Assembly: GCA_044224515.1 (NCBI GenBank)
Contig: JBGAKH010000002.1
Span: 162,151 to 226,150, forward strand
Source of the DNA: Chlorobiota bacterium
Lineage (GTDB): Bacteria; Bacteroidota; Ignavibacteria; Kapaibacteriales; NICIL-2
DNA: 64,000 bases
Direction of reading: 5' to 3'
Below, piece after piece: positions 13,901-60,100 of the stretch. A program made the position numbers and the translations under genes. Under the pieces are notes generated by a model. The model saw nothing but the letters and a program-made list of their open reading frames with translations. It was not told the origin of the DNA and made no database searches. The stretch's first letter is position 1. Each line of letters begins with the position of its first letter.

Positions 13901-14110
13901 TAATTGCCATCCTGCATAAACAATGGTGGGGCGGGCCCATCGTCACTACAAGGACTATCGGATCGATGATACAGGCAATAGTGATTGAGCTTGCGAGTTA
14001 GCACTGATCATCGTTCGAGGCTGCCACATCACATGCATTTGTATCACCATTCGATGTCAGCGTATTTGAGCATTTGTACTTTTGATTTACAGCACAAACC
14101 TCGTAGACCC

Positions 14111-16620: not shown

Positions 16621-16624
16621 GAGG

Positions 16625-16698
16625 GGCGAACGACGGGGCTTGAACCCGCGACAACCGGAACCACAATCCGGGGCTCTACCAACTGAGCTACGTCCGCC
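16625..16698 (-). tRNA. tRNA-His (anticodon GTG) with genomically encoded G-1; 3' CCA not encoded
   Basis: Hand-folded cloverleaf: acceptor GCGGACG/CGTTCGC, D-arm GCTC-AGTTGGTA-GAGC, anticodon arm CCGGA-TTGTGGT-TCCGG, T-arm GCGGG-TTCAAGC-CCCGT, discriminator C. Extra 5' G pairs with C73 as in bacterial tRNA-His. Confidence 0.85.
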
Positions 16699-39817: not shown

Positions 39818-40534
39818 TTAGAAGTCTTGGGGAACATCACCTTCGCTAGGTGCGTTCCAGATATCACCAACATCTTCGCCGGTCAATTGACGGTGGCGAA
39901 CGACCTTGGCTTCAGAGAGGAAGATGACGTTTTCGGCGATATTGGTTGCGCGGTCGGCAATGCGTTCGATGTTGTGCAAACCAACGATTAGGCGTGTTCC
40001 GCACTTTATGAGAACCGGGTTTTCCTCCATCAGTCGCACAATCTCTGCGCTGATTTCCACTTCAAGTTCGTCGACGTTATCGTCGGTCGACAACACATGA
40101 TGCGCCAGCTTTGCATCGTTGTTGATGAAGGAGTCAAGCGACGCCTTAACCATCTTGAAGGTATTGGTCGTGATTCTATCGAATCCAACTTCATCCACGA
40201 TGTGGCGAATACCATCTTGAAACGTGAGCCGCGCGATAACCAGGGCGGCATCGCCAATACGCTCCAACTCGTTATTAATCTTAATGGCAGCTAGTAACAA
40301 TCGCAAGTCACTCGCAACCGGTTGCTGAAGAGCAAACAAGCGTTGCACTTGGCGATCAATTTTCAAATCGAGCTTATCGACTTTATCGTCACGTTCAATA
40401 ACCAGATGAGCAAGCGACTCGTTCGTCGTTAGCAACGCACGGAACGCGTACTCCACTTGCTCTTCCACCAATGAACCCATGCGGATGAGACGGGTACGGA
40501 GTTTATCGAAGTCGTCTTCAAAATGTCTGTGCAT
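39818..40534 (-). CDS. phoU: phosphate signalling complex protein PhoU (238 aa)
   Basis: Two PhoU repeats with conserved E/D-x3-D…RIGD-like blocks (…NNELERIGDAA…; …LHNIERIADRATNIAE…). Confidence 0.85.
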   Translation of the reverse strand: MHRHFEDDFDKLRTRLIRMGSLVEEQVEYAFRALLTTNESLAHLVIERDDKVDKLDLKIDRQVQRLFALQQPVASDLRLLLAAIKINNELERIGDAALVIARLTFQDGIRHIVDEVGFDRITTNTFKMVKASLDSFINNDAKLAHHVLSTDDNVDELEVEISAEIVRLMEENPVLIKCGTRLIVGLHNIERIADRATNIAENVIFLSEAKVVRHRQLTGEDVGDIWNAPSEGDVPQDF

Positions 40535-40678
40535 GACGTATTCCTGCTATGGTGCTGCGTAACAAAAATCAGGTGTTGTTTGCTGCAACCACCTGAGCCG
40601 GCATCGTTTTGATAACGAGGTCCCGGACTTTATAGTATCGGACATTGAGAGCGCAGCCTGAGGGTAGGCACACAACTC

Positions 40679-41539
40679 TTAACCGAAACGTCCTGTAATG
40701 TAATCTTCGGTCTGCTTCTTTGTCGGATTGGTGAAAATCGCACGAGTGCGTCCGGCTTCAACCAATTCACCCATGTACATGAAGGCCGTGTAGTCACTGA
40801 CGCGAGCGGCCTGCTGCATATTGTGTGTAACAATAACAATTGTGTAGCGACTTTTGAGGTCGTGAATCAACTCCTCAATTTTTGCAGTCGCAATGGGATC
40901 CAAAGCGCTCGTCGGTTCGTCCATCAGCAAGATTTCGGGTTCAACCGCCATTGCGCGTGCAATGCACAAGCGCTGCTGTTGACCACCGGAGAGCGACATC
41001 GCAGGTTCTTTCAAGCGATCTTTTACTTCATCCCACAGCGCCGCTTTTTGTAGCGCGTCTTCAGCCACCTCTTTGAGCAAACTGCGCTTGCGAACACCGT
41101 TAAAGCGAAGACCCGCAACGGTATTCTCAAAAATGCTCATTGTGGGAAAAGGATTGGGCTTTTGGAACACCATTCCGATACGTCGGCGAACGTGTACGGC
41201 GTCCATCTTCATCACATCTTCTCCATCCAGCAAAATCTCACCCACGACCTTTGCTCCGGGAACAATATCATGCATGCGATTCAGAGAACGCAGTAGTGTT
41301 GACTTGCCGCAGCCGCTGGGACCAATAATAGCCGTAGCACGATTGTCATGAAAGTTGATGTTGATATTTCGAATGGCAAAATTGCCATTGAAGATCACCC
41401 CGACACCACGAACGCTCAAGCGTGGATGTTGGTTCTCAACGTCATGCTGGTGAAGATCCTGATTCAACTCGGGCTTCGACAGTGGTGACACCGTCAGCTC
41501 GCTTTGTTGTTGCTCTTCAGTCATACACTCCTCGGCCAT
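40679..41539 (-). CDS. pstB: phosphate ABC transporter ATP-binding protein
   Basis: Walker [13 protein letters not shown] signature LSGGQQQRL, Walker [13 protein letters not shown]. PstB-specific N-terminal …[14 protein letters not shown]…. Confidence 0.9.
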
Positions 41540-41638
41540 TCATTGGTGATAGAATTTCGCATTGCAGTCAACAAAGAACAGACCGGCTGCTCTCTGCTTG
41601 CTGCGCTCTCGTCACGTGGCTGCATGTGCAACAACGTC

Positions 41639-42511
41639 TTACTGCTGAACCGTAAACTTACCGCCGCTAACCAGTCGCACAACCACACTCAAAATGAAGA
41701 CAATCACGATGAGTACGGTGGCGCCTGCCCACGCTTGTGCGTGCCAATCGTCGTAAGGCGAAGTTGCATAGGTATAGATCTGCACCGGTAACGACGCAAT
41801 GGGTTGGTCTAAACCGGTATGCCAAAATCTGTTATTTAAGGCAGTGAACAACAAGGGAGCGGTCTCTCCCGCTGCTCGTGCAACGGCAAGCATAACTGCT
41901 GTAACAATACCTTTTGCTGCCGCGCTTAGAACGATTCGCGTATTGACAATCCATCTCGGTGCACCGAGTGCTAGTCCTGCCTCACGTAACGTAAGCGGTA
42001 CCAGCTTCAATAACTCTTCTGTTGTTTTGGTGATCGTCGGGATCATGAGTACGGCAAGGGCAACAGAACCTGCATAGGCAGAGAAGTGTCCCATAGGTTT
42101 CACCACCAAAGCATAAGCGAAAATCCCCACGATGATAGAAGGCAAACCGCTCATTACTTCGGTCAAGAAGCGAACAATGGACGAAAATGTATTCGTTCCG
42201 TACTCAGCCAGGTAGATACCACAGAGCAAACCTATGGGAACAGCAATGAGGGCTGACATTCCCATCATGATTAACGTCCCAACAATAGCATTACCCATAC
42301 CACCGCCACTTTCTCCAACCGGCTTCGGCAGATGCGTAAAGAACTCCCAGTTCAACGCACTAATACCTTCACGCACCGTGTAGAACAAAATCAAGGCCAG
42401 CGGCACAAGCGCAATGACCACGCACAGTGCACACAAACCAATCATAAGATTGTTGAACACATTGCGACGAACGATGGTCGACTGCTTGAACTGCAAACGA
42501 CGAGTGCTCAT
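41639..42511 (-). CDS. pstA: phosphate ABC transporter permease PstA
   Basis: 6-TM permease with EAA-like loop; second permease in pstC-pstA-pstB order. ATGA overlap with pstC. Confidence 0.8.
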   Translation of the reverse strand: MSTRRLQFKQSTIVRRNVFNNLMIGLCALCVVIALVPLALILFYTVREGISALNWEFFTHLPKPVGESGGGMGNAIVGTLIMMGMSALIAVPIGLLCGIYLAEYGTNTFSSIVRFLTEVMSGLPSIIVGIFAYALVVKPMGHFSAYAGSVALAVLMIPTITKTTEELLKLVPLTLREAGLALGAPRWIVNTRIVLSAAAKGIVTAVMLAVARAAGETAPLLFTALNNRFWHTGLDQPIASLPVQIYTYATSPYDDWHAQAWAGATVLIVIVFILSVVVRLVSGGKFTVQQ

Positions 42512-43509
42512 TGACGTCCTCCGGCGATTTTCTTGCGACTAACACTCCAAACTAGCAGACGTGCCAGAGTGTTTACGACAAAAGTGGTGAGTAACAACAC
42601 CAGGCCAACCTCGATCAGGGCAGAAACATAAGTGCCCGACGTTGCTTCGTTAAACTCGTTGGCGATAACCGAAGCCATGGTATAACCCGGTTGAAAGATG
42701 CTTGCCGTGATCTGCGGTGAATTACCAATCACCAGCGTCACAGCCATGGTCTCACCCAAAGCGCGACCCAAGCCCAAAATTACCGCACCGAGAATGCCCC
42801 AGCGAGCATTCGCGACGACAATGAGGATCGCTTCCCACTTGGTGCTTCCCAATGCTAAGGCAGCTTCACGTTGCGACATCGGAATGGCCAACATGACATC
42901 TCGCGAAATACTGGTGATAATCGGAAGAATCATGACGATCAGAATACAAGCCGCTGCAAACATATTGGGACCTACGACAGGTCCGGCAAACAGCGGAAAG
43001 GAATTCCCAAGCAGATTCGATAAAGGCTGCGAAAGATGCGTCTGCAAATAGGGAACCATGACAAAAACACCCCACACACCGTAGACGATGGATGGAATGG
43101 CTGCCAGAGTTTCAACAAGAAAGGAGAGGACTGTTCGCATCGTCTGACCGGACACTTCCACCAGGAAGATGGCAATGCCCAAGCTTAAGGGTAAAGCCAT
43201 TGCCAAGCCTAATAGCGACGAAACAATGGTACCATAGAGGAAGGGTGCTGCGCCATATACTTCATTAACGGGATCCCAAGTCTTCGATGTGAAAAACGAG
43301 GTTCCGAACTTATTGATGGTTTCATTGGAGCTGGCAACTAACTCCCAGATGAGTCCACCAATGACCACAACGATAATAATAGCCGCGCTTGCGCACAGCA
43401 CATAGAACACACCATCACCAATCTGCGATTTCACTTTGGTGACGAGTGAGCGTATTTCAGCCGAACGTCCGTGCGACGTAGCTTCAGGTAGCGCAGATGT
43501 TGTGCCCAT
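42508..43509 (-). CDS. pstC: phosphate ABC transporter permease PstC
   Basis: Polytopic ABC permease, first gene of the pstCAB-phoU string. Confidence 0.8.
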   Translation of the reverse strand: MGTTSALPEATSHGRSAEIRSLVTKVKSQIGDGVFYVLCASAAIIIVVVIGGLIWELVASSNETINKFGTSFFTSKTWDPVNEVYGAAPFLYGTIVSSLLGLAMALPLSLGIAIFLVEVSGQTMRTVLSFLVETLAAIPSIVYGVWGVFVMVPYLQTHLSQPLSNLLGNSFPLFAGPVVGPNMFAAACILIVMILPIITSISRDVMLAIPMSQREAALALGSTKWEAILIVVANARWGILGAVILGLGRALGETMAVTLVIGNSPQITASIFQPGYTMASVIANEFNEATSGTYVSALIEVGLVLLLTTFVVNTLARLLVWSVSRKKIAGGRQ

Positions 43510-44219
43510 AAGTCCTGCAATTTACTGAATCATCCGCTCAATAACACCGCCAATGCTAGGCTGTTATTGAATCGTAATGAGATGATCCTTGCTTCTCCGG
43601 CATGAATTCAAGGGCTTCGCGAATGTAGTAATCGCAACGCTCTACACAACCGAAGTTTCGGAAGAAACACTCCGACCTTTTCTGGCTGTATCTACTTCTC
43701 AATTCTCGTGTTACTTAGTGAAAGCACGTACGACATGTCGTTGCCGGCAAACACCACGATTCCCTCTTGGTGTTCACCTACTATCCTTCAACAGGGCAAA
43801 ACTCTTTGAGATGCAGAGACTGAGAAGGAAAGCCTAGCAAATGCGATAGCGACTGTCAAGCAACACCGTAGCATTTTTGCAGTTGAAGACGAGAGCCACA
43901 CAGTGGTTATCACAGTAGTACGTACCGTACTCGATACGGTACTTGAGAACGTTATCATGTAAAGGGCGGTTCAGCGTGAATCGAGCTGAAACAGAACCGT
44001 GGGCTTTGTTGTCTTTGCCTTTTGGGCAGTCGGCAGTCGTCAACAAATATGTGTGCATTTTTTGTTTCACATTGACTTTTTACAGCAGACGCCCGGTCGA
44101 TCGAAAGCTAAAAAATGGTTATATAAGGCTTTTTTCGGCTAATTTGATGGCTCAACATTAAGTTTTTCACTCCTATATTGCCAACCATTCACTATTCACT
44201 AACCAGTCATTCACAGTTT

Positions 44220-45122
44220 ATGAAGAGATTTCTAATCTTTGCCATACTTGCCCTTCCGGCAGTACTCCCCCTCGAGAGTTTTATCGAGAAACCGAGTTCA
44301 GAAGGTATCGCAGCGGACACAATTTGTTTCTCACGTGATATTCTTCCCATGTTGAACTCAAATTGCGCCATGTCCGGTTGCCACGATGCTTCCGCTGCAG
44401 GTGGTTTTAAACTTACGACTGCTGCGGGTGTGCTCAAGGGTGTTAAAGCAGGATCACCTTCGACCAGCAGCATCTACCGTGAAATCAACTCCGGCTCAAT
44501 GCCCCGCTCTCCGTGGAAGCGTCTACCGGATTCACTCAAGACCCGTTTGTCAGCGTGGATTACAGCCGGTGCAAAAACAGCGGAGTGTGTTGAAGCATTC
44601 TGCGATACATCCAACGTCACCTACGCAAAAGATATCAAACCCATCATCCAAACTGCGTGTGTTGGATGTCATCAAACCACGTCCGCAGAAGGTGGCTTCC
44701 ATATGGATGTTGACGCCACCAACCAAGAAAACAAGGTTCGTATTTACGAATCTGCAGCACACATAAATGGTGCTGCTGCAATGCCGCGAAACATTGCTCA
44801 ACTGAGTGCATGCCAAATTGCCAAGCTGCGTATCTGGGCTCTGGGCACGAGTGAAGTGGCAAACGATCCAAGTGCGGACGATGCATTCAGTATTGTACAA
44901 GACAATGGTGAGGAAGTCCTCCGCTTCCAATTAGCACTAAGCACGCAGGCAAGTGTGAACGTGTATAGTGCGGATGGACGTGTTATCACAAGCATACCAA
45001 GCAGTGTTTATGCTGCCGGTTACAACCAGGTTCGTCTTGGAACCTCGATGCAAGCACATGGCTTGTACTTCGTTCGATTCGTTAGCCAAGGCACAACCCG
45101 TTCGATGAAATTCTTGCGTTAG
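44220..45122 (+). CDS. secreted protein with two tandem Planctomycete-type cytochrome c-like (PSCyt1-like) modules (Cx4CH and CxxCH) and a T9SS C-terminal domain (start MKRFLIFAILALPAV…)
   Basis: Module 1 …RDILPMLNSNCAMSGCHDASAAGGFKLTT…MPRSP…LSAWITAGAK. Module 2 …KDIKPIIQTACVGCHQTTSAEGGFHMD…MPRNIAQLSACQIAKLRIWALG. C-terminus …HGLYFVRFVSQGTTRSMKFLR. Confidence 0.6.
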   Translation: MKRFLIFAILALPAVLPLESFIEKPSSEGIAADTICFSRDILPMLNSNCAMSGCHDASAAGGFKLTTAAGVLKGVKAGSPSTSSIYREINSGSMPRSPWKRLPDSLKTRLSAWITAGAKTAECVEAFCDTSNVTYAKDIKPIIQTACVGCHQTTSAEGGFHMDVDATNQENKVRIYESAAHINGAAAMPRNIAQLSACQIAKLRIWALGTSEVANDPSADDAFSIVQDNGEEVLRFQLALSTQASVNVYSADGRVITSIPSSVYAAGYNQVRLGTSMQAHGLYFVRFVSQGTTRSMKFLR

Positions 45123-45148: not shown

Positions 45149-45183
45149 AAAAGCCCAACGGCGTTGCCGTTGGGCTTTTTTAT
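45149..45183. terminator. bidirectional rho-independent terminator (GCCCAACGGC-gtt-GCCGTTGGGC + T-run) between convergent genes
   Basis: Perfect 10-bp stem; T6 downstream, A-rich upstream. Confidence 0.65.
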
Positions 45184-45244: not shown

Positions 45245-47464
45245 TTAGGGATTCTCAACGGGTGTCTCAACGACAATGTTCACCGTCCGGTTGTACATGC
45301 GACCTTCAGGGAAATTGTTGTCGTAAAGTTCTTGCTCTTTTCCATAACCTTTGGCGGTTGATGAAGGAAGATTGAGAGCCTTCGCTGTATAATCAGCTCG
45401 TTTGGTGCTTAGCATCATGTTGTACTCAGCGCTTCCACTTCGGTCGGTGTGGCCGGTGATCACGTAGGTGGACTTAGGACTCGAATGTTCCTTAATGTAT
45501 TTGATCAACGCTAAATGCGAGGCTGTGTGAGTGTAGCTACCGAATTCGTAGAGAATGAGCGAGTATTTGTCAACGTACTTGTCATTCACGCGCTCGCGAT
45601 CTTGTCTTGTCTGCATCTCTACCGGAAAGGTTTGCGTGATTCTGCGCAGCGAATCGAGTTTGTCGTGCACGTCAAAACGAATACGAATGTCATGCAAATC
45701 GCGAGGCCCGCGCGAGAGATCTTTATTGATATCCCATTGCAAGTGTTTATCAGGCATACTGCGACCGCTCATTGCAACGAATACACTGTCGTTCAAGACC
45801 GAGTGCACCGACCAATCCTTGACACCCACAGAACTCTTTACAGTTGGATAGAAGTGTAGTGAGCTCACGTGTTGTGCGCGTAAAACCGTATCTAGCAATA
45901 CGACGTTGCGAAGAATCTCAGGATCGTTGGAGCTGATTTCGACGCGACGGTTCTCGTCGATACCATCTTGACTCTTTGCACTGGAGGGCACAGCCGGAAG
46001 GTTTTGCGCTTTTACTTTCAAGCGTGCCGGATCAATTCCCCATACCTTTTCGAAATAGTCGCGCACGCGTTCTGCGCGTGCTTTCGACAATGCGGTGTTT
46101 GCCTTTTCCGGTCCCAGATCCTGATTACATCCTGTAAAAGTCAACACTGCTTTTGAGTTGTCGCGCATACGATTGCCTATGATATTCAGCACTTGTCTGT
46201 AGATTTCAAGTGCTGAGCTCTTTCGAAGCGCATTGACGTTGAATGATTCGGTTTGCTGAGCCGGAACTTGCACGTAGCGTTCCGGTATCACATCACTATT
46301 TTCATCAAAAAAGATATAGGGAAGCAGTGGTTGTATGGAATTGCCCACAACTTCTTCAATCTTCACCGTAACGATGTCTTTCTCCTCACCGTCTTGATCC
46401 GACGCTTTGAGCTTCATCGCTGTCTCAAGGCAATACGGTCGCTTTTCCGGGAGGGTCTTTACATAGCTCTGCCATACTTCGGTCAATAGGGTAAGCGTGT
46501 TGTATCCTGACTCAATTTCTTGTTCGTCGGTGGAATCATGCTTGAGTTCAATCTGCACCGCGCTAATGTCATAGGATTTCTCCACTGTTGTGTCGCGATG
46601 ATACACTGTATCGTAACGCATCAGTGGAGGAACAATCGGATTGTATCGCACAGACGCACCTACCTGCAGAGCGCTGATATGCCAGTCAATTTCCTTGCTT
46701 ACACTCGGTAAGAGTCGTGTGTAATTCAGCTCAGGCGAAAGGATCAATGTTTTCTTCTTGTTCAAGGGCACGTCAATACGCAACCCCACTCGAGCCATGA
46801 GATAAAGACTGATAGCCTGCGGTAGCTCTTGCGCGTTGAACTCGTTGCGTGTGCGCAAACCACTCGGAAAGAACACGCCCTCTTGATCCGCAGCCAGTTT
46901 CTCAACCTGATCGAATTGCGTTCGAAGACTACTGCAGATCGGCAATGAAGCACTTAGCCAAAAGCCACTGACCGGCTGGAAGAGTATGGCAGGCTCAAGG
47001 TTAAGATTTGAGATGTGCGCCGTGATCGAATGGTCTATGCGAGCCTGCTCCGTGCCGGTTGATGTGGTGACGGTCGTCAGCGAATCCTGTTCGCGCGCAG
47101 TGAGAATTCCTCCCAATGATTCAAAACCCAGACGAAGTTGTGCGGACCACAACGGACTAAGTACGTACTCACCAAAGATGGCTGCATGGATTCCACTTCC
47201 ACTGCCCCTTTCAAAATGTGGACAGCAGTTCGGGTAACCGGGTATCTTCTGAAAATTCGTCGTATGGTTCAATGACGAGTAGTCGACCGCCACTCCCACG
47301 CTATACGGGAAGTGCGGCTTCTCAGACTGTGAATACACTTGTACGCCGATAAGTGAATGCACAATGAAGAGTGAAACGATGCCGCTTAAGCGAAGTCCAT
47401 GCAATAGCCGCTTTGAGCTACTAGCAAGAATGTCTTTGATGCTTCGTGTCATGCTACTGCTCAT
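45245..47464 (-). CDS. large OmpA-family outer-membrane protein (739 aa): N-terminal beta-barrel-like region, two OmpA-like peptidoglycan-binding segments
   Basis: C-terminal …YVITGHTDRSGSAEYNMMLSTKRADYTAKAL… (OmpA_C motif) and internal …LTFTGCNQDLGPEKANTALSKARAERVRDYF…. ATGA start/stop overlap with upstream 2438-aa gene. Confidence 0.75.
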   Translation of the reverse strand: MSSSMTRSIKDILASSSKRLLHGLRLSGIVSLFIVHSLIGVQVYSQSEKPHFPYSVGVAVDYSSLNHTTNFQKIPGYPNCCPHFERGSGSGIHAAIFGEYVLSPLWSAQLRLGFESLGGILTAREQDSLTTVTTSTGTEQARIDHSITAHISNLNLEPAILFQPVSGFWLSASLPICSSLRTQFDQVEKLAADQEGVFFPSGLRTRNEFNAQELPQAISLYLMARVGLRIDVPLNKKKTLILSPELNYTRLLPSVSKEIDWHISALQVGASVRYNPIVPPLMRYDTVYHRDTTVEKSYDISAVQIELKHDSTDEQEIESGYNTLTLLTEVWQSYVKTLPEKRPYCLETAMKLKASDQDGEEKDIVTVKIEEVVGNSIQPLLPYIFFDENSDVIPERYVQVPAQQTESFNVNALRKSSALEIYRQVLNIIGNRMRDNSKAVLTFTGCNQDLGPEKANTALSKARAERVRDYFEKVWGIDPARLKVKAQNLPAVPSSAKSQDGIDENRRVEISSNDPEILRNVVLLDTVLRAQHVSSLHFYPTVKSSVGVKDWSVHSVLNDSVFVAMSGRSMPDKHLQWDINKDLSRGPRDLHDIRIRFDVHDKLDSLRRITQTFPVEMQTRQDRERVNDKYVDKYSLILYEFGSYTHTASHLALIKYIKEHSSPKSTYVITGHTDRSGSAEYNMMLSTKRADYTAKALNLPSSTAKGYGKEQELYDNNFPEGRMYNRTVNIVVETPVENP

Positions 47465-50400
47465 CGAACTATCTCCAGTCTCTGCGTCTTCATTTCAGTA
47501 GCCGTGTGGAGAATGACTTGATATACACCGGACGGTATGGTTGCACACGAAGCTTTGTACTGCCACTCGGCAGCAGGTGGCATACCTTCATATAGCACCT
47601 GCGCAACACGTCCCATCGCGTCAACAACTTCAATGCGCACTGCTGCTCGTTCAGGGGTGCTCAGGTCTACCGTAATGTTACCGTCAGCCGGATTCGGGTA
47701 CACAGAGCGTAGTGCAATAGCTTTAGCCCTATCAAATAGACGTGTTCCTCCATCTGTGCACTGACCGGAAATAGAAATTTTCGCATCCTTAGAACTCAGC
47801 GTTGCACTACCACCATTGGCAACAACGTTGCTGAAGTGCATTGCAGTCTGTACGTCATTTCCTAATGCTGCTTGCAATTCAAGTATTGCCAGAATTGAAT
47901 CTTGGGCATCGATAGCTTGGCTTTCGATCGACACGGTACGCGTTGGCCCGTCTTCAACACTGCTCAGTAGCGAACCGTGGCGCACACTACGTAACGACAG
48001 CAGTGTGGTATTCCACTGGAGTTGAGCGCTCATAGTAGATATACCTGCCAACTTCGCACCGCGCACATCATGTATGTACAGCGGATACTCGAAGACCTGG
48101 CCGATCTGCACCGTCGTATCCAAGGCATACACCGAAATTTCAGCCCGCAGGTTGGCAGAGAGTTCAACAGGGTTTTCGCGACCGCAATTGTCGCGGTAAC
48201 TCAGTGTCTCGCGAATCCATCCACTCGAGTCCGGTGCATCGAAGTGCATATAGGCCACTCCTTGGGTGTACAACGGAAGCGGATTCGGAGAGATGGAATC
48301 AATGGTGAAGTACTGTCCTCGAATCGGCGTCGGCACCACTTGCTCAAGCGAACCATCGTTCACAATAACCATTGTGGCACTGTACTGTTGACTCCGATTC
48401 ACAATGCCATAGAAGAAGGGATTATCCTTCCAAATCATGTCAACGGAATCTTTAAGTACCTTCAATGCAATGCTACGTTCAGCGTTTGTACTACTGTCCG
48501 TATTTGAAATCAAAACCAACTCCGCACTACGCATACCTGTGTAAGAATGCGAAAGGTGTCGCAGAAGAACCAAATGCTGTGCTGACGGCTCGAGTTCAAA
48601 GGAACTGTCGTTCACAATTGTAAACTCATTGGCTTGTGCACCCCGTAAGAACATGCGACTGACAAGCAGATTATCACCACCGGTATTTTTGACGACGACT
48701 GTGGTATCGAGAGATGGATAGCACTGCTCGTGAGCGGATAGTTCGGTGATTGACTGCAAGTGTGCCGGAACAATTTTCATAACCTCGATGACCACCGCCA
48801 ATCGATGTGCGGTTGCACAGCTGTCAAAAACTGTGATCGTATCGCGGTAGACTCCGGCGCTGTCTCCAGCAAAGCGCACATAGGCAATTGCGGAATCACC
48901 AACCGGCACAGGATTCTTCGACAAAGAGTCGAGCGAGAACTTATTGCGAGTTACCGGTGTTGCAATGCGCAAAGGCAAACTTCCGGTGTTGTAGACAACA
49001 ATCTGCTGCGTTGTCTTGCGCCATTCGCGAAGCGTCGGAAAACTCAGCACGGTTGAAGCAAAACGCATATCTGCTCGCTGAACTTCCACCGACAATGAGA
49101 GAACCAGAATCGAATCCTTTTCAGAGTTCGAGTAAATGGAAATTGTCGAAGGAATGCTTTGCGATGTTGCGCCACTACCGCTGGCATCGCAACGAATACG
49201 CAAAGTATCAACAGCACCGGGCAGAACGATTCTAGGAAGGGGTGTAATCAGACTCATGCTAAGCAGAGCCGATTGTGAGAATGCGACTGAGTCGATGCGC
49301 AACGTATCAAGTCCGCTGTTTCGTACGACGACTGAGGTGTCTCGTTTTGGCGTGCACGGGACAGCAAAGGTTTTTGGAGGAGTGAGACTAATTCGTGGAC
49401 GCAGACTTTGCACCTGAGCATGGATACGCAAAGGCTGCGCCTTTGCACACTGATCCTGCACGTTGAGTGTGTCGTAGACCGACGTTCCGCTCGGTGCTCC
49501 GGCAAAACGCAGAGTATAGATAGCAGAAGCTCCGGCGGGCGTTGGATTGGGAACGACTGAGACAAGGCTAAAGAGACCTCGCTGCTGCGGAACTGTCCAC
49601 TGTATCTCGGCGCTACCGGTATTAACAAGGGTGTCGCTAAGCGTCGCAGCCGTATTTGGAGCAATATCAATGAACTCCTGTGCGGCGGTATCAAATCGAA
49701 ACGCGGTATAATTCCAGTGAGCACTAAGAGGAATCAGTGTCTGACCATTTGTTGTGTTTTGAGCGTTCGATTCAATGACGAGCGAAGCACCGGTAGAGTT
49801 GAGTTCCTTTGGAGTATAGCGAATAACGATTGAGTCGAGAGCATCAGGATCTATCGTTGATGCCGGTTTGCGGACAATGCTGAATTGCTGCAAACTGTCG
49901 TTGATGATACGTAGGTCTTTTATCGACAAGGGCATCATGCCTACGTTAGTGATAATAATAGTCGTATCGAATTGCGATTGGCATGTGCGACTCTGTATAT
50001 CAAGATTCGACAAAATGTACACAGTAGCTTTAGGACTCTGTGTGAAGGCTCGAAGACGAGCCGAAACTTCTCCCCCGCACGTATCACGAACAGTGTACAG
50101 TGTGTCGTACACCATGGAGGTATCTCCGTTATTAAAGTTCACAAAGATCCGTGCGCTTTGTCCGGAAGGTATGGGGTTTGGCGCGATGGACATTATCGTG
50201 AACTTGCCCAGCTTCACAGGTGTCGGCAGGTACATACCCACACTTCCTCGATTGACAATGGTTAGGAAGCCATCAACCGATGTGAAGGGTCGCACATTAA
50301 GGAAATCCAGCGTTTGAGTCGGGAAGAACCAAATAACCGTGTCACGTTTTGCGGTCAAGCCCACGTCCAAAACACCCTTGGGAGTATTCTGTGCATTTGA

Positions 50401-53400
50401 GTAGACTCTGAGCGTTGCAGCCCGTGATCCGGAAAACTGCGGTAGATATTGGACGCGAATGTTTTTAAACGATGCTGCGGAAATGGTATCTGGAAACACA
50501 CTCACTACTTTAAAGTAAATGGAGTCTGAACCAATGATACGCACGCTATCAATCTGCATCACACCGGTTCCCGTATTGTTGATACGAATCACGGTGTCGA
50601 TGGGATTAAGAGCCGAACAAATGGGAGACAGCATCGCATAGTCTTTCTGTGCTGAAGCAATGCGTGGAATACCTATGCCCTCTCCCGCCAATAGGATGGT
50701 TGCGGGCGAGCCAAGGAAAGCATGGTAGAAAGCAAGCCGAGCACTGGTGAGTGCTATTCGGGTCGGGGCGAATCGCAGGGTGATGACCCGAGTCTCATTC
50801 GGCTGTAGAACAAAACTTCCGCCTCCGCTAACGATGGAGAATTGAACCGTGTCCGGACCCAGTATCCGTGTATTCGTTATGGTTAAGGCTGAAGATGTAA
50901 CGTTTTTGATAGTTGCCGTTACTGTGGTGTCTTTCTTTGTTGTGATTTCGACCTTTCCGAAATCAATCTGTTCAATAAGATTGTTCGTTGGTGGATTGAC
51001 CGACTCACCGATCAACACAAAACGCAGTGTATCACACAGGGTCACAACCGTCATCGTCACTTGTTTGATACCCACGACTTTGGTTCGTGGAATGAAGCCT
51101 AATTCATAGCTGAGCGATTGACCCGGATAGAGGTAAAGTCCCGTGTTCTTTTTTACAATCCTGAACTCATCTTTGTTATATCCTTCAATCGTTACCGAAT
51201 AGATGTAATCCCATGAAGAACCGATATTCATGATGATTTGATTGATCACGGAATCACGCGCTCCGTTGTTCAGCACTTTACCGAAGTTGATGGTATCTTT
51301 CTTAATCAGCTGCGAGGTGCCAATCACGAAGGGTGTCTTCGTGGTATCCATCTGAATTGGTGAGGCTAAGCAGTCCCACAACCAAGCATTACCGTCGTGA
51401 GAACAAATCAACGCGCGCGAGGAGTTTTCCGACAATGCGATTTGTGATACCGCGTACCCCTGGTGAGGGTTAACAGTGCGGATCACAGCTCTATCCGACG
51501 TCCGCCATAGACGTGCTTGATTGTTGGTGATCATTGGACCAACCACGTAACCTGCATTCGGACAAATCGCTTGCACGTTGTCGCTGATACTTCCCAGCAG
51601 ACTCAAAGTTGAGTCAAGAATGAAACTACGGTTTGTGGCTTGGTGGTAGATCGTGGTGTATTTCGCACCCGGCGCGTAACTGATTTTTGAGCACTCTCCA
51701 CCAAATCCATAAGTGTCCGTAAAGCGCATGGTTTCCGTCCAGCTTGCGGTGCTGATCGACACAACACTCATGTTCGTTGCCGATGCAAGTCCGGCAACCA
51801 GCAGGCTGTTGTCATTGTAACCGTAAACCAGATCACGCCCCGCGACAAAATTGTTGATTGTCAGCGTGCGAATCAGTGCTCCTGTCGCAGTCGCGAAAAC
51901 ACGAACGGTGTTATCAGCTACAACCGCCACGTATTGACTGTTCCCGGAGAATGCCGGACCGTAGCCGGCACTGCTAATGCGTGTGATTAACTGACCGCTA
52001 AGGACATTCCAAAGGGCCATTGAGTTGTCGGTCGACAAGGCAGCCAAGTAGATTCCGTTGGGACTTACCCGAAGCTGGTTGACTTTCGATGCCGTGGCAG
52101 CCAAGTCATAGAAGCACTTCAGCGTATCACGCGTTGCAACGTCATGCACGTAGACAGATCCGTCTTCGCCCATGGTTGCCACATTCTGGTCGTTGTTGAA
52201 GAAACAGCCCGATACCACGGCACCGCGCGCAGCATTACGCAACAGCAGTTGCTTTTCGTGCGTGCCACTCGAGGTCCACTGATTCACGCCACCAAATCCC
52301 GATGCCGTCAGAATGTGTGATCCATCGGAAGAAAACTGCGCAGACATACTGCGCCATGCGTGTTGATTCAATCGTCCACTGCCGTCAAAGCTGAATATCT
52401 GCGAAGCGGTCGACGGATCCCACACTACCACCGCTCCTCGGTAGGCATCAGGAACTCCCACCGCTGTTTCACCGCAGCTCAATACTCGGGTGCCACTTGC
52501 ATTGAAGCAAGCGTAGTAGTGTGCACCGATAGAGCCACTGAAATTCTTGAGTTCACTGGAGCTCGACGTGCTGAAGATTCTAGAGTAACCACCCAGGTAA
52601 CTCACAAGTACTTGATCTATTGAGGTCGGGTTGAAACTGACTGAGCTTACCGCTGTAATCTTGGAAGGATCGAGATTCGTTATGCGAGTGCCGCTGCCAA
52701 CGTACCAGACTACTGTTCGGCTTCCCACGTCTCCACTCGCCAATCGTGTTCCGTCTGCGCTGAAGGCAAGCGCGGACACCGGTGAGCTGTGATAAACTAA
52801 GGTACTGATGAGACTGCCATTGCTAAAGTCGTAGATGCGAATCGCATTATTCAATGAGTTTACGCCGACTGCAATACGTGAGCCTGCCGCATTCAAACTC
52901 ATGCACGTAAAGGTTGTCGTGAGGTCAACTATTGTTCGCACCAATGCATAGGTGCTGGCGTTCCAAATCTGGATGTACGCCCCGGGACTACCGTTTGAAA
53001 GCGTCAGGATGTAGCTGCCGTCCGGTGTCCATGCTACAGCACTCACCACGCGACCCGAACCCGGGTTCAAGGTTGCGAGAGTATCTCCGCTTTGCAAACT
53101 CAGTACGTATGCTTTTCGCGTTGACAGATAACTGTTGTCAGGATTCAGACATGCAACAGCTTGGTTGTTGTTTTGTGGATTGTAGACGACTTGCTTCATC
53201 TGTCCCGCGTGTCCCAGCTTCAGAAACTGTGTTCTGTCGTTCTGGAATTTCAGGTGTGAGATACGAATGCGATTGTTCGAACCCGTGCGGGGAGGAGTGC
53301 GAAACCACTGCTCAAAGTTTCCGCTGAAGTTGTCGACCAGCATTGTCCATGTTTTTGCATCGTCGTAGCTCCATTCCACACGAACAGAGTCGCCGGCAGC

Positions 53401-54777
53401 CACACCATCCCATCGGAAATAGGTGTAGTAGCACGAGTTGTAATTATCCGGCGCGCTAGGATACAACGCTACAAGAGTTTTTTGCGGTACAGTTCGTGAT
53501 TGATATCCGGCAGAGGCTCCAACCCATTGCCAGTAACACATGTTGCTCTGCAGATTGAGATTGCCAAACTGATAGGTCGTATCCGTTGCCGTATAGCGTA
53601 CCGTCAACACACGAGTAGTACCGGAGTCTATAACAAAAGGTGGAGAACTTCCACCCCAGTTAATCACTTGAAAGTGAGCATTGGTAAACGAACCGGCATC
53701 TATGGTGATTGCTGCGTTATAGGCATACAATGTCAGGGTTTTATCAACGTAGGTTCCAGGGGTGACAGCACCGTACGTGAGGGAATAAGGAGACTGCGAG
53801 ACGTAGGGAATCTTTGATTGCGGCATCAAGTAGTATTGTCCGACGGCCGGCATTCCCATGGACGGCACTGCAATACTGACATATCTCCAATTCACATAAC
53901 AATAGCGATCGGCCCACCAATGAAGAGTACAGGGAGGAATTCCTTGCGCATGCACATAGGCAGCACGAAGTGCTGCTTTAAGCATAACCTCTGTGCCCAT
54001 TGATTCACGATTTAAATCACCCTGTTCTATACCACCGGTTTGCACAGCCATGTCATAGAGTATCTGTGGTGCTTGAAGGTGATAGGAGATGGTGTAAATC
54101 GTGATGTTATAGAGTCGAGCGAAATTGACGATGGAATCAAGTTTGCCACCGCCATCACCATCGGTTACCAAAATCACAACGCGCTTATATTGTCCACGTG
54201 TTGCGACATTTAATGCTCCCGTCGGCGCAGCCAATAAAGCGTTATTATAATCCGTTGCGCCTTGAGGTTGTAGGGTTCCAACCGCTTGTAGTAGTGCAGA
54301 GCGACTCGTGGTAAAATCCTGATTAATGTAACTCAGGTGATCAAACGATGTCAGCGCAACTTCGTTTTGCGTTGTATCGATCATCGAAATAAGCTGCGAT
54401 GCTGCGTTTCGTACGGTGGACATGCGGCTCGGACTATCTTGACTCATGGAGCCCGAAACATCTAAGCACAAGACAACGGATAATTTTTGAGCAGTGGCGG
54501 AGGGAGGACAACTCACGGACGTGACTTGCATTGACGTTGAACCATTGTTCACGACAAAGTCACTCGTTTGAAAATTCCTAATTAATCTGTTTTGCGCATC
54601 AAAAGCATAAAAATCACAGCTGTGATCCTGAAATGCATTTACCGTGTAGGAAATTGGCGCAAGGCTCTGCGTCCACAAGTTCGTGGAACACATAAAGATA
54701 GCCAGGAGACCCAGAATTCGTCGCGACAGGGACATGTGACTCCGCAGATTAGGAGAAATTCCACACCGAATTGTCAT
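47461..54777 (-). CDS. giant T9SS-secreted protein (2438 aa): signal peptide, vWA domain, beta-propeller-like repeat region, nine or more Ig-like (HYDIN/choice-of-anchor-D-like) repeats, T9SS C-terminal domain
   Basis: vWA MIDAS DVSGSM (…VVLCLDVSGSMSQDS…VVILVTDGDGG…). Repeats with conserved [ILV]xNxG core (IVNRGSVG…, LVNTGSAE…, VYNTGSLP…, IVNDGSLE…). C-terminus …IPSGVYQVILHTATEMKTQRLEIVR. Alternative start at 54735 (MSLSRRILGLLAIF… signal peptide). Confidence 0.8.
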   Translation of the reverse strand: MTIRCGISPNLRSHMSLSRRILGLLAIFMCSTNLWTQSLAPISYTVNAFQDHSCDFYAFDAQNRLIRNFQTSDFVVNNGSTSMQVTSVSCPPSATAQKLSVVLCLDVSGSMSQDSPSRMSTVRNAASQLISMIDTTQNEVALTSFDHLSYINQDFTTSRSALLQAVGTLQPQGATDYNNALLAAPTGALNVATRGQYKRVVILVTDGDGGGKLDSIVNFARLYNITIYTISYHLQAPQILYDMAVQTGGIEQGDLNRESMGTEVMLKAALRAAYVHAQGIPPCTLHWWADRYCYVNWRYVSIAVPSMGMPAVGQYYLMPQSKIPYVSQSPYSLTYGAVTPGTYVDKTLTLYAYNAAITIDAGSFTNAHFQVINWGGSSPPFVIDSGTTRVLTVRYTATDTTYQFGNLNLQSNMCYWQWVGASAGYQSRTVPQKTLVALYPSAPDNYNSCYYTYFRWDGVAAGDSVRVEWSYDDAKTWTMLVDNFSGNFEQWFRTPPRTGSNNRIRISHLKFQNDRTQFLKLGHAGQMKQVVYNPQNNNQAVACLNPDNSYLSTRKAYVLSLQSGDTLATLNPGSGRVVSAVAWTPDGSYILTLSNGSPGAYIQIWNASTYALVRTIVDLTTTFTCMSLNAAGSRIAVGVNSLNNAIRIYDFSNGSLISTLVYHSSPVSALAFSADGTRLASGDVGSRTVVWYVGSGTRITNLDPSKITAVSSVSFNPTSIDQVLVSYLGGYSRIFSTSSSSELKNFSGSIGAHYYACFNASGTRVLSCGETAVGVPDAYRGAVVVWDPSTASQIFSFDGSGRLNQHAWRSMSAQFSSDGSHILTASGFGGVNQWTSSGTHEKQLLLRNAARGAVVSGCFFNNDQNVATMGEDGSVYVHDVATRDTLKCFYDLAATASKVNQLRVSPNGIYLAALSTDNSMALWNVLSGQLITRISSAGYGPAFSGNSQYVAVVADNTVRVFATATGALIRTLTINNFVAGRDLVYGYNDNSLLVAGLASATNMSVVSISTASWTETMRFTDTYGFGGECSKISYAPGAKYTTIYHQATNRSFILDSTLSLLGSISDNVQAICPNAGYVVGPMITNNQARLWRTSDRAVIRTVNPHQGYAVSQIALSENSSRALICSHDGNAWLWDCLASPIQMDTTKTPFVIGTSQLIKKDTINFGKVLNNGARDSVINQIIMNIGSSWDYIYSVTIEGYNKDEFRIVKKNTGLYLYPGQSLSYELGFIPRTKVVGIKQVTMTVVTLCDTLRFVLIGESVNPPTNNLIEQIDFGKVEITTKKDTTVTATIKNVTSSALTITNTRILGPDTVQFSIVSGGGSFVLQPNETRVITLRFAPTRIALTSARLAFYHAFLGSPATILLAGEGIGIPRIASAQKDYAMLSPICSALNPIDTVIRINNTGTGVMQIDSVRIIGSDSIYFKVVSVFPDTISAASFKNIRVQYLPQFSGSRAATLRVYSNAQNTPKGVLDVGLTAKRDTVIWFFPTQTLDFLNVRPFTSVDGFLTIVNRGSVGMYLPTPVKLGKFTIMSIAPNPIPSGQSARIFVNFNNGDTSMVYDTLYTVRDTCGGEVSARLRAFTQSPKATVYILSNLDIQSRTCQSQFDTTIIITNVGMMPLSIKDLRIINDSLQQFSIVRKPASTIDPDALDSIVIRYTPKELNSTGASLVIESNAQNTTNGQTLIPLSAHWNYTAFRFDTAAQEFIDIAPNTAATLSDTLVNTGSAEIQWTVPQQRGLFSLVSVVPNPTPAGASAIYTLRFAGAPSGTSVYDTLNVQDQCAKAQPLRIHAQVQSLRPRISLTPPKTFAVPCTPKRDTSVVVRNSGLDTLRIDSVAFSQSALLSMSLITPLPRIVLPGAVDTLRIRCDASGSGATSQSIPSTISIYSNSEKDSILVLSLSVEVQRADMRFASTVLSFPTLREWRKTTQQIVVYNTGSLPLRIATPVTRNKFSLDSLSKNPVPVGDSAIAYVRFAGDSAGVYRDTITVFDSCATAHRLAVVIEVMKIVPAHLQSITELSAHEQCYPSLDTTVVVKNTGGDNLLVSRMFLRGAQANEFTIVNDSSFELEPSAQHLVLLRHLSHSYTGMRSAELVLISNTDSSTNAERSIALKVLKDSVDMIWKDNPFFYGIVNRSQQYSATMVIVNDGSLEQVVPTPIRGQYFTIDSISPNPLPLYTQGVAYMHFDAPDSSGWIRETLSYRDNCGRENPVELSANLRAEISVYALDTTVQIGQVFEYPLYIHDVRGAKLAGISTMSAQLQWNTTLLSLRSVRHGSLLSSVEDGPTRTVSIESQAIDAQDSILAILELQAALGNDVQTAMHFSNVVANGGSATLSSKDAKISISGQCTDGGTRLFDRAKAIALRSVYPNPADGNITVDLSTPERAAVRIEVVDAMGRVAQVLYEGMPPAAEWQYKASCATIPSGVYQVILHTATEMKTQRLEIVR

Positions 54778-57110: not shown

Positions 57111-60100
57111 TTGTCACGACGGATACTACTACCGATGCTGCTTAAGACAGATCATCTGCACAACATAGTGCATGCCAACGAGCGCAGAGACAACGAGCAG
57201 ACCGTTGCGCTGTTGAGTCTCAAGCGGAGTTGGTCCATCGCGCTCAGCTTGACCCTTTTCTTTGTCCTTCTCCTACCACTTCAAGCCACTCAGCGCTTAG
57301 ACAGCACAAACATTGGGAGCATTGATATTGTTCACGCGGAGCAAGTAGCCGGACATTTCGCTCTCGACAAATCCCTATCGAACTCGGCGTTAACCATAGC
57401 CTTGAACGACTACGACCGTGGCCTATGCATTGAGGCAGGACATACCGTTCGTATCTACGTCGACAGTCGATGCGTGTCACTGCAAGCATTCATCGGTATA
57501 GACAACAGTATAGTGCCACACATAGACAGTTGTGAATTCATCGTTGTGGGCGATGTGGATACGCTTTGGCGAAGTCCGAAGCTCATTACGGGTCGTTTAG
57601 CAACGTATATGAACGTTGACATAACAGGAAGGAAGTCGCTCTTTCTGATCACCCGATCACTGTCTAGTTCTAAAAACGTTGTTCCGATCGACTTTGCAGG
57701 ACTGCAAATAGTTCGCTCGTTTAACGCTGCTCACGTCACGCCACTGGCTGATACCGTTACGTTCGACAGTACTGCCGTGCTAAGTTCAGCCCAAGATTTT
57801 GCTACACTGCGATACAATCGATCCACGGATGCCAACACCCTACGCGTCGCTGCAAAAAGCTACGATAGTGGATTGGGAACACACGCAGGGAGTGAAATCG
57901 AAGTAGCACTGGCTCCGCATTGTCGTGAATTCCGAGTGGATGTTGGAGCAGACGACGAAACGCTGCCGAACAAAGCTTCCATACGATTTTCTGTACTGCA
58001 CGAGACTGATACACTCTGGAAAAGCGGCCTGATGAGCACAACGAATGCCGCGCGCTTATGTCGTCTTGATGTTGCAAACTACAAGACACTGCGATTGTGC
58101 GTTGACGATGGCGGAGATGGCACCGCTTTCGATCACGCGGACTGGCTACACCCGCAGTTCTTATGCGACCGACTCCTTCCCGCTGCCTTCGATACGATAC
58201 TCATCGACAAAACGCTGATTAGTTACGAACAGGTCTTGTACGATTCGGTGAAGGTCAACGCCTCGTATCTGGGCCTACCCATGATCATCGCGAACACAAC
58301 GTATGCTCATGGTTTGGGACACCATGCTTGGGCTAACATCGGTATATCCTATCGTCCAAATTGGTTAACCTTTATGGCCGACGTCGGTGTCGATGCACGC
58401 TCATTGCCTGAGAAGGGAAGTGTCGAGTTCTTTGTTATTGCCAACTATCGCGACACATTGTGGCGCAGCGGCATCATGCGTTCAGGCGAAGAAGCCAAGC
58501 ACTGCGAAGTATCCCTCAACGGGGTATATCAACTTCAACTTGCTACCAACAACGGCGGAGACAATATCTCCTACGATCATTGCGATTGGGCTAACGCAAG
58601 CATTATCGTGGATCAAAGCGTCAGCTATGACAAGTACGAGTTTCCTATCCAAAGTATTCCATGTATAGATATGGTTATCGAGGAGGTGCTAGACTACTTG
58701 CCCCGCATCAACCGATCTTTTGGAAATCTTCCTATTCGCATCGGCAGCCGACAGTTCAGTAGCGGAGTTGGCCTCCATGCGAAAACAACCGTGCCTCTCT
58801 GGTTGAATGGCCATGCACGACGACTACACTTTCTAGCAGGAGCCGACCGGTCCGGTCTCACTGTCGGATTTGGCATCGGAAGCGTGCGCGTGCGAGTTCT
58901 GGGCGACGGCGATATTCTTTGGCAAAGCAGTGTCATGAAGACAGGCGACGAGGCGCAAGTATGCGACATCGATGTATCGAACATTCACTACCTGGAAATC
59001 ATTGCCGACGACGGCGACAATGGTGTCAGCTTCGACCATTGCTCTTTGGCCGATGGCTACTTCACGATGCAGTATCCCTTTGCTCCGGTTCAGTACAAAG
59101 CCGCAGCCGCTCCATTCGTTATTCGCACGCCGGAGGATAGTACGCCGCACATCAACGGACCAACAATGGTAGGCACTCAACCCGGTCGAGAACTGCTGTA
59201 TCACATTCCTATCAGCGGGGCACGTCCTATGGATATTAGCATATCCGACATTCCCGATGGATTGGTTTACGATACTGCCTCCCACAGTTTGCGCGGCACC
59301 CTCAATCAACGCGGTACCTACACTGTCACTGTTGAGGCACATAATCTCCACGGACAAGATCTTCGCCGGATTGGCATACGAGTAGGTGATACTATTGCTC
59401 TTAGTCCACCAATGGGGTGGAACAGTTGGTTGGTTAGCCACGTGGACATTGACGAAAACAACCTTCTCGAACAATTGCGTGCGTACCGCAGTCTCCCGCT
59501 GCGTGATTACGGATACAATTACTTCAACATCGACGATGCATGGCAGGGACAGCGCAATGCAAAGGGCGAGATCGGATGGGATACGACGAAGTTTCCGCAT
59601 GGACTCAAGAGTCTCATCGACAGCGTCCACGCGTCGGGCTTCTTGGCAGGGCTCTATACTTCGCCGGGCGTCATTACTTGTGCCGAACTTCCGGGCAGTT
59701 ACAATCACGAAGAACAGGACGTTGAAAGTTATTGTCGCTGGGGTGTTGATGCCTTAAAGAGTGACTGGTGCGCCACTAATGAGCTCTTGGATCCCAAGCA
59801 AAACATCTCTGCACAGATGAAGGCTTTGCATAAGCGTATGTCGGACGCCATTCGCCGCAACTCTCGCAACATTCTCCTTATGCTCGATCATTATGATGTC
59901 AATGCAGTGTTGGAGTGGGGACAAGAAATTGGCGCAAACACGTGGAGAACCGGCAACGATGGAATTGACACTTGGCGCAACATCAGCCTGGACAATGGAT
60001 TCAAGAACTCGAATTTCGCGGCTTATGTGGGCAATGGGCATTGGAATGACTATGACGTCTTAACGGTTGGAAATTTTTACGTCAATGCTTCCGGACACAA

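Follow-up and report, generated by a model that had tools for sequence, protein, structure and literature searches.

A conserved pair of type IX secretion cargo and OmpA-type barrel genes in Kapabacteria and Ignavibacteria, putatively encoding a surface adhesin and its dedicated envelope anchor

Type IX secretion system (T9SS) substrates have been described as belonging to two types: type-A substrates are finally released or linked to anionic lipopolysaccharide (A-LPS), and type-B substrates are served by private carriers of the PorP/SprF kind, to which the cargo stays bound; PorP is found in a complex with the cargo PG1035 and the peptidoglycan-binding protein PorE (PMC12635249; PMC9143113; PMC12618676). 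A further arrangement is known from Acinetobacter, in which the gene for the giant trimeric autotransporter adhesin AtaA is followed, in the same operon, by the gene for TpgA. This OmpA-like protein binds peptidoglycan, is stably complexed with the part of AtaA that anchors it in the membrane, and withstands extraction by mechanical force (PMC12523085, PMC13082670). In this study, a two-gene locus was analyzed that combines a T9SS cargo gene with a gene of the OmpA family. It is located in a window of 64,000 nucleotides (nt) from a Chlorobiota bacterium (GenBank assembly GCA_044224515.1, contig JBGAKH010000002.1, positions 162,151 to 226,150 of the forward strand), to which all coordinates refer unless another locus is named. 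The locus comprises a giant gene for a putative adhesin, a T9SS cargo protein of 2438 amino acids (aa) (47461..54777, minus strand), recognized from the list of open reading frames (ORFs), domain searches and orthologues, and a partner gene encoding 739 aa (45245..47464, minus strand). The pairing was found to be conserved in related genomes, and the two products may represent an adhesin and its dedicated carrier-anchor.

Compared to the PorP/SprF carriers (the SprF-SprB, PorP-PG1035 and Fjoh pairs), the locus likewise features a barrel protein encoded beside a large T9SS cargo, seemingly dedicated to it and predicted to keep it barrel-bound (PMC9143113, PMC12618676). However, the module described here uses another barrel family, with a small OmpA/OprF-like fold and fused peptidoglycan-binding domains, its cargo carries a type-A C-terminal domain (CTD; TIGR04183) and not a type-B one, and the lineage is that of Kapabacteria and Ignavibacteria. 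Similarity to P. gingivalis PorE (PG1058) and to its complex with PorP and PG1035 consists in the combination of a peptidoglycan-binding OmpA_C-like domain, a barrel and a surface cargo, and the module looks as if the functions of PorE and PorP had been merged in one chain. AtaA-TpgA shares the order of a giant adhesin gene followed by an OmpA-like peptidoglycan-binding gene within one operon, but belongs to the type V secretion system instead of the T9SS, and TpgA is periplasmic, with a BamE-like N-terminal domain and no barrel. No prior description of the family or of the pairing was found in the open-access literature. The initial annotation, which could name no described system as a match for the pair, has to be qualified, since PorP/SprF, PorE-PorP-cargo and AtaA-TpgA are clear conceptual precedents for it.

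Re-reading of the sequence yielded both ORFs, of 2438 and 739 aa, and their ATGA overlap as previously given. At the junction (GTT CGA TGA GCA; 47461..47464, minus strand), the TGA of the cargo gene and the ATG of the partner gene share four nucleotides, an arrangement also present in orthologues, and a Shine-Dalgarno-like GGAGA is located 9 nt upstream of the partner ATG. The MgsA/RarA gene upstream of the cargo gene is divergent, and a bidirectional, intrinsic-terminator-like hairpin with a 14-bp stem (45149..45179) lies after the partner gene and before a convergent cytochrome c gene, which together indicate a two-gene operon. A scan for sigma-70 promoters returned fewer sites than in shuffled sequence and is uninformative for this phylum. 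The cargo gene probably has its true start at Met15 (nt 54735), given that its orthologues comprise 2424 and 2419 aa and can be aligned with it from the mature N-terminus onwards.

The significance of the pair had been made dependent on its occurrence in related genomes, and here the initial annotation was borne out. An orthologue at 76% identity retains the whole neighbourhood, including the same overlap, and is for this reason uninformative on linkage. At 59% identity, however, both genes of the pair are kept, along with their overlap of 4 nt, despite completely different flanks (YidC upstream and a type I restriction-modification system downstream). A further 79 loci, at 25–35% identity, were evaluated by calling ORFs and marking domains with profiles seeded by the giant. 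Using a refined neighbour definition, a same-strand gene encoding a CTD was adjacent in 60 out of 85 non-duplicate family members from other genomes, 56 of these 60 having the cohesin-like tail described below, and no adjacent CTD gene was present in 19 of the 74 members for which both flanks are visible. The CTD gene stood on the same strand at position -1 in 44 of 75 cases (59%) and at position +1 in 16 of 73, compared to a rate of approximately 5% at a distance of three to six genes in either direction. Intergenic gaps were mostly between -4 and +35 nt, and nine of the more distant pairs also showed the 4-nt overlap.

Whether the co-occurring feature is a giant cargo with a von Willebrand factor type A (vWA) domain had been posed as a question, and this idea was rejected: a vWA domain was present in only 14 of the 60 partner cargo proteins, and their sizes ranged from approximately 300 to 2700 aa with variable passengers. 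Judged from the gene neighbourhoods, the feature linked to the pairing is instead the cargo tail, composed of a cohesin-like domain, an invariant cysteine and the type-A CTD. The cohesin-like segment, which had not been listed in the initial annotation, occurred in 53 of 60 adjacent CTD proteins versus 13 of 64 non-adjacent ones, most of these 13 being either neighbours missed by the gene-picking rule (scoring misses) or second cargo genes of the same cluster. With positions 34–157, a profile built from 52 tails matched at least 14 cellulosomal cohesins of solved structure (E=1.7e-4 to 1e-2), and with positions 175–256 it matched T9SS CTDs. As a single sequence, the segment of the giant scored 19.9 bits against PF00963, below the cutoff of 24.1, and its structure prediction without an alignment (predicted local distance difference test, pLDDT, 36.7) was set aside. 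A search with the last 268 residues of the giant (47464–48267, minus strand) returned no match, not even the query itself, so that the giant is perhaps absent from that index, which does contain the partner (P0001), and a homologue search with the cargo-tail profile returned CTD-only matches (profile positions 173–258).

In the giant, the cohesin-like domain (residues ~2212–2335; 47773..48144, minus strand; Pfam Cohesin E=8.7e-4 and tail profile) immediately precedes the CTD and is followed by the linker C-T-D-G-G-T-R-L (residues 2340–2347; 47737..47760, minus strand), corresponding to the family consensus C-x-E-G-G-x-R-L. The linker cysteine, Cys2340 in the giant, was invariant in all 52 partner cargo tails. 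In minimal cargo proteins of approximately 300 aa, which consist of a signal peptide, a short N-terminal region, the cohesin-like domain and the CTD, it is the sole cysteine of the mature chain, and nine tails contain no other cysteine within 260 residues. A cysteine in the column of Cys2198 was found in 34 of the 52 tails, and most of the others have one nearby. Another giant T9SS cargo of the window, of 2026 aa (16935–23015, minus strand) and featuring Laminin_G_3/ConA-like and Por_Secre_tail domains, has neither the cohesin-like tail nor an OmpA-family neighbour and thus provides a negative control from within the window. The gene for tRNA-His (16623–16697, minus strand) is located just downstream of it.

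On the side of the partner, conservation within the barrel is highest in the loop that joins strand 1 to strand 2, for which the consensus reads N-x-H-x-A-x-F-x-x-L-P-G-x-P-[NS]-C-C-P-x-F-x-x-G-x-G. In the partner studied here, the twin cysteines of this loop are C80-C81 in P-N-C-C-P (47222..47227, minus strand; local pLDDT 91–95). Two loop cysteines (CC or C-P-S-C) are present in 77 of 84 family members, one in six and none in a single member, which also has no cargo neighbour. Furthermore, PSCCP is kept in a barrel-only paralogue whose gene comes immediately after that of a cargo protein bearing the cohesin-like/Cys/CTD tail.

A search with the N-terminal 380 residues of the partner among 1.84 billion representatives identified 1234 clusters at 50% identity, 810 of them at E<=1e-10. 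Nearly all of them comprise proteins of 660–750 aa, and some are barrel-only, with 250–290 aa. The homologues originated from metagenome-assembled genomes (MAGs) of Candidatus Kapaibacterium, Kapabacteria, Ignavibacteria or ‘Chlorobiota’ and were annotated as ‘OmpA family protein’ and nothing more. As far as these searches indicate, the partner is a member of an unnamed family restricted to Kapabacteria and Ignavibacteria. Several family paralogues per genome are common, each beside its own cargo gene.

Taken together, we favour, with moderate confidence, the reading that the operon encodes a surface adhesin and a dedicated outer-membrane and peptidoglycan carrier-anchor serving a single subclass of T9SS cargo. 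The data show the domain architectures, the operon structure, the gene linkage across the family, the specificity for the tail and the conserved cysteines; that the two proteins bind each other, that the partner anchors the cargo instead of assisting its export, and that the giant is an adhesin are all inferred from sequence and comparison. According to this proposal, the partner would sit in the outer membrane via its OmpA/OprF-like barrel and bind peptidoglycan via one or both C-terminal OmpA-like domains. The barrel would recognize the cargo tail, that is, the cohesin-like domain, the C-x-E-G-G-x-R-L linker and the CTD, and the partner would thereby retain the adhesin on the cell and couple it mechanically to the cell wall. 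One chain would in this way take over the tasks that PorP/SprF, as barrel carrier, and PorE, as peptidoglycan-binding protein, perform for type-B cargo.

A covalent form of this retention was also considered. The linker cysteine is placed approximately 15 residues before the CTD and would stay on the mature cargo after CTD removal, and the twin-Cys loop would correspond to extracellular loop 1 if, as is usual for outer-membrane barrels, the N- and C-termini both lie in the periplasm. The combination of an invariant, often unpaired cysteine in the cargo with twin cysteines in the partner mirrors the chemistry proposed for SprF/PorG, in which a lone cysteine attacks the intramolecular disulfide of the twin cysteines (PMC12635249), and suggests a disulfide tether between Cys2340 of the cargo and C80/C81 of the barrel, an idea by analogy that we regard as unlikely in its specific form. 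The SprF/PorG-GldK Cys343 case resembles the present one in that twin cysteines of a T9SS-associated barrel face an invariant lone cysteine of the partner; it differs in that the C-x-C motif there belongs to a periplasmic C-tail and has GldK, the track/hub lipoprotein, as its partner, whereas the CC or CxxC motif here is found in barrel loop 1 and its candidate counterpart is a cysteine of the cargo. Extended to the whole group, a third mode of T9SS attachment specific for Kapabacteria and Ignavibacteria, next to the A-LPS linkage of type A and the non-covalent PorP/SprF binding of type B, with cohesin-like/Cys/CTD cargo disulfide-bound to a private, peptidoglycan-fixed barrel, is a similarly speculative and rather improbable notion. 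If true, it would represent a load-bearing link from the adhesin via the outer membrane to the cell wall.

Several points weigh against a dedicated anchor or its covalent form. Type-A CTD cargo normally proceeds via the general carrier PorV, with no need of a private partner (PMC12635249), and the extracellular position of the twin-Cys loop is derived from a general topology rule, not from model coordinates. Approximately 80% of the tails contain a second cysteine about 140 residues upstream, which could form an intraprotein pair with the invariant one. Members without cargo nearly all keep the twin cysteines, so that the motif of the barrel may serve a cargo-independent role. Finally, the co-diversification of barrel and cargo tail, determined for 51 pairs by the mirror-tree approach on distance matrices, is suggestive only, because shared ancestry and unequal domain rates confound the values: the barrel correlates with the cohesin-like domain at 0.47 and with the CTD at 0.45, neither value being reached in any of 300 permutations, compared to 0.15 and -0.01, respectively, for OmpA-like domain 1, and to 0.17–0.48 for the barrel versus the other domains of its own protein. 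With this reservation, the values are suggestive of the barrel being the cargo-linked part of the partner.

These data bear differently on the competing explanations. The partner could be a general OmpA/OprF-type protein, either a tether between outer membrane and peptidoglycan or a porin, that is merely co-transcribed with large surface proteins and does not contact the cargo specifically; it might, for example, strengthen the envelope at sites of heavy adhesins. The OmpA/OprF fold, the annotation of the family as ‘OmpA family protein’ only and the 19 of 74 members without an adjacent cargo gene are consistent with such a role, but multiple paralogues per genome, each by its own cargo gene, would not be expected from it, nor would the linkage to one particular cargo tail instead of T9SS cargo at large. 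Since, in addition, co-diversification with the cargo tail is stronger for the barrel than for the peptidoglycan-binding domains, and a barrel-only paralogue is still paired with cargo, we consider this explanation the most improbable of those discussed here. A role of the partner in export, not in anchoring, appears nearly as improbable. The protein would then act as a SprA-docking shuttle that extracts the cargo subclass, in the manner of PorV for type A and PorP/SprF for type B, or its twin cysteines would bond to the invariant cysteine of GldK/PorK and connect it to the T9SS hub instead of the cargo. The correlation of the barrel is equally strong for the CTD and the cohesin-like domain, secretion of type-B cargo requires dedicated carriers (PMC12618676), and the twin cysteines of SprF and PorG bond to GldK Cys343 (PMC12635249), all of which would fit export. 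However, the cysteine motif of SprF/PorG resides in the periplasmic C-tail and the one described here in the first inter-strand loop, outside by the usual topology, two peptidoglycan-binding domains fit a static anchor better than a mobile shuttle, and the invariant, often unpaired cysteine of the cargo is left unexplained.

It is also conceivable, albeit still somewhat unlikely in our view, that all cysteines are purely structural, the twin cysteines forming a local disulfide that stiffens loop 1 and Cys2340 pairing with Cys2198, and that the two proteins associate non-covalently, for example through a cohesin-like interface. The 34 of 52 tails with a cysteine in the Cys2198 column, and the nearby cysteine in most others, favour this explanation, as do the compatibility of both the CC and the CxxC variants with a local disulfide and the nature of cohesins as protein-binding modules. 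In contrast, the nine tails without any other cysteine within 260 residues and the cargo of approximately 300 aa with a lone mature cysteine are hardly accommodated, and a lone invariant cysteine in an exported protein would be unusual for a purely structural role.

The structure of the partner protein was predicted with AlphaFold2 on the basis of 62 homologues (pLDDT 87.4). The model shows, in this order, a signal-peptide helix, the barrel, a hairpin insert, OmpA-like domain 1, an Ig-like domain and OmpA-like domain 2. The N-terminal outer-membrane beta-barrel spans residues 54–274 (46643..47305, minus strand), with 10 or 12 strands according to the DSSP string, and is followed by a lineage-specific beta-hairpin insert (residues 281–378). 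OmpA-like domain 1 (residues 380–512; 45929..46327, minus strand) was delimited by matches to NCBIfam pdsO and MotY over residues 416–512, the model and the alignment. An Ig-like beta-sandwich (residues 521–618; 45611..45904, minus strand), deduced from the secondary structure of the model, separates it from OmpA-like domain 2 (residues 629–735; 45260..45580, minus strand), which carries the canonical GHTDRSG...N..LS..RA with the family-invariant residues G671, D674 and R689. Pfam detected OmpA only, with 66 bits, in two stretches (residues ~416–512 and 653–732). The canonical Asp and Arg of OmpA-like domains bind diaminopimelate. In OmpA-like domain 1, Asn replaces the canonical Asp (GCNQDLG...RA) and Arg is kept. 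The previous description of an OmpA-family protein with a barrel-like N-terminus and two peptidoglycan-binding segments thus applies with regard to the barrel and the two OmpA-like domains, but the canonical motif T-D-x-x-G...R-A is present in the second domain only. At fold level, the model indicates that the partner is an elaborated protein of the OmpA/OprF (OOP) type, having a small N-terminal barrel and a C-terminal OmpA-like domain with Asp and Arg. In contrast to OmpA/OprF, it is approximately twice the size and possesses extra beta-hairpins, two OmpA-like domains, an inserted Ig-like domain and the twin-Cys loop, and it occurs in several paralogues per genome with tight linkage to T9SS cargo.

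Assignment to a known T9SS component, which would have spoken against the interpretation in the initial annotation, was not obtained for the partner. No Pfam or NCBIfam match to PorP/SprF and no match to PF11751 were detected, and the partner's own cargo carries a type-A CTD, not the type-B CTD of a PorP/SprF-style pairing. The NCBIfam families PorE, CHU_0125, TpgA, Pal, MotB and others matched via the OmpA-like domain only and far below their cutoffs. For PorE (NF052230), 25.1 bits were obtained versus a cutoff of 600, with OmpA_C alone aligning (residues 637–711), and the model contains a barrel and neither the tetratricopeptide repeats (TPR) nor the WD40 region of the PorE architecture. The CHU_0125 family (NF053607) reached 25.8 bits versus a cutoff of 620 through the OmpA domain alone. 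TpgA (NF047726) reached 38.9 bits versus 350, and the cargo belongs to the T9SS substrates, whereas TpgA is paired with a trimeric autotransporter. No PorG family was among the best 25 of 26 matches at E<=0.1; PorG is an 8-stranded barrel of approximately 230 aa with its cysteines in a periplasmic C-tail, whereas the partner has its motif in the strand 1–2 loop and approximately 460 residues after the barrel. A dockerin family was not detected in the partner by the Pfam scan, with no wider search having been made.

The domain composition of the giant cargo protein was recovered essentially as previously described, including the vWA domain with its metal ion-dependent adhesion site (MIDAS), the propeller-like region, the Ig-like repeats, of which at least nine had been counted, and the T9SS CTD. 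The vWA domain (residues 96–260; 53998..54492, minus strand) matched PF13519 with 57.6 bits and PF00092 with 46.7 bits, both above their cutoffs, the VWA/VWA_2 matches spanning residues 101–243, and the MIDAS is complete with all five residues (D106-x-S108-x-S110, T175 and D206). A WD40-type beta-propeller region covers residues ~520–1150 (51328..53220, minus strand; PF00400 with 63–85 bits, and many propeller families). A jackhmmer repeat search, together with Pfam and NCBIfam matches, revealed nine tandem Ig-like repeats (residues 1159–2106; 48460..51303, minus strand), and the repeat search found a tenth at residues 332–419 (53521–53784, minus strand); the repeats are of the HYDIN/ASH/Cep192_D4/DUF1573/choice-of-anchor-D type. 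The type-A CTD (residues 2359–2438; 47464..47703, minus strand) matched PF18962 (Por_Secre_tail) with 34.1 bits (cutoff 27) and TIGR04183 with 30.9 bits (cutoff 23), both curated cutoffs thus being exceeded, at residues 2359–2434. At the N-terminus, a putative Sec signal peptide was recognized by inspection from the hydrophobic RRILGLLAIFMCSTNLWTQ preceding the mature N-terminus conserved in orthologues. With a MIDAS-containing vWA domain, WD40 propellers and a stalk of approximately ten Ig-like domains, the passenger looks like that of an adhesin.

Some of the more distant loci deviate from the simple two-gene arrangement. At two of them (L026, 4084–12046, and L038, 4009–11971, in coordinates of these loci), the OmpA-family gene overlaps the end of a gene for a protein of 1956 aa with SprB-repeat, PKD and ‘Ig_7 CHU_C-associated’ domains, which resembles a type-B gliding adhesin; no type-A CTD was detected in it, and its C-terminus looks frameshifted. 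The OmpA-type partner family may also serve SprB-like adhesins. Three loci (L041, L055 and L065, the last from a Melioribacter MAG) contain, in this order, an OmpA-family gene, a vWA/propeller/Ig cargo gene, a second OmpA-family gene, a gene for approximately 370 aa and one for approximately 650–670 aa with two cohesin-like matches, which may point to further conserved components in some lineages. In another three (L061, 3–9873; L082, 2–5528; L087, 3–4120), a giant in which no CTD was detected is followed by a protein of approximately 300 aa and then by the OmpA-family gene. These giants are repeat proteins truncated at the contig end (1068 to 2969+ aa), for which Pfam was uninformative, and the proteins of approximately 300 aa contain nothing beyond a signal peptide, HPSSVIGAGGETM...GFWY as a conserved N-terminal motif, the cohesin-like domain and the CTD. 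Such a protein could be an adaptor carrying or docking the CTD-less giant.

Within the window, phmmer searches against all ORFs revealed no further paralogue of either protein. The sole other match was the OmpA domain of a vWA-OmpA fusion of 511 aa (13985–15520, plus strand), with vWA at residues 182–339 and a C-terminal OmpA-like domain at residues 408–502. Fusions of this kind were also found among the homologues of the C-terminal half of the partner (P0074 and P0077–P0085; the copy in L010 stands alone), indicating that vWA and OmpA-like modules recur together, both fused and as neighbours. The gene converging on the partner gene encodes a c-type cytochrome of 314 aa (44178–45122, plus strand), and a pstC-pstA-pstB-phoU phosphate-transport operon is located downstream (39818–43509, minus strand). 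Both are considered unrelated to the module, since synteny is kept only in the closest relative (L001). A protein of 1240 aa (57111–60833, plus strand) combines four NPCBM/NEW2 domains with an alpha-galactosidase domain (Melibiase_2) and is probably another T9SS-secreted glycosidase, because its orthologue in L001 shows a weak Por_Secre_tail match. Furthermore, in a protein of 630 aa (23419–25311, plus strand), an Nramp metal transporter is joined at its C-terminal end to a universal stress protein (Usp) domain.

Research on the T9SS rests almost wholly on Bacteroidia and Flavobacteriia. The deep-branching Kapabacteria and Ignavibacteria appear to solve surface retention differently, namely with another barrel family equipped with peptidoglycan-binding domains and with a distinct cargo tail. 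The signature composed of the cohesin-like domain, C-x-E-G-G-x-R-L and the CTD allows the annotation of hundreds of hypothetical and ‘OmpA family’ proteins in environmental genomes. The proposed tether leads to a testable prediction, namely a dithiothreitol (DTT)-sensitive adduct of cargo and partner and an effect of Cys-to-Ser mutants. If the link should prove to be load-bearing, it would be relevant to the ways in which giant adhesins are joined to the cell wall in diderm bacteria.

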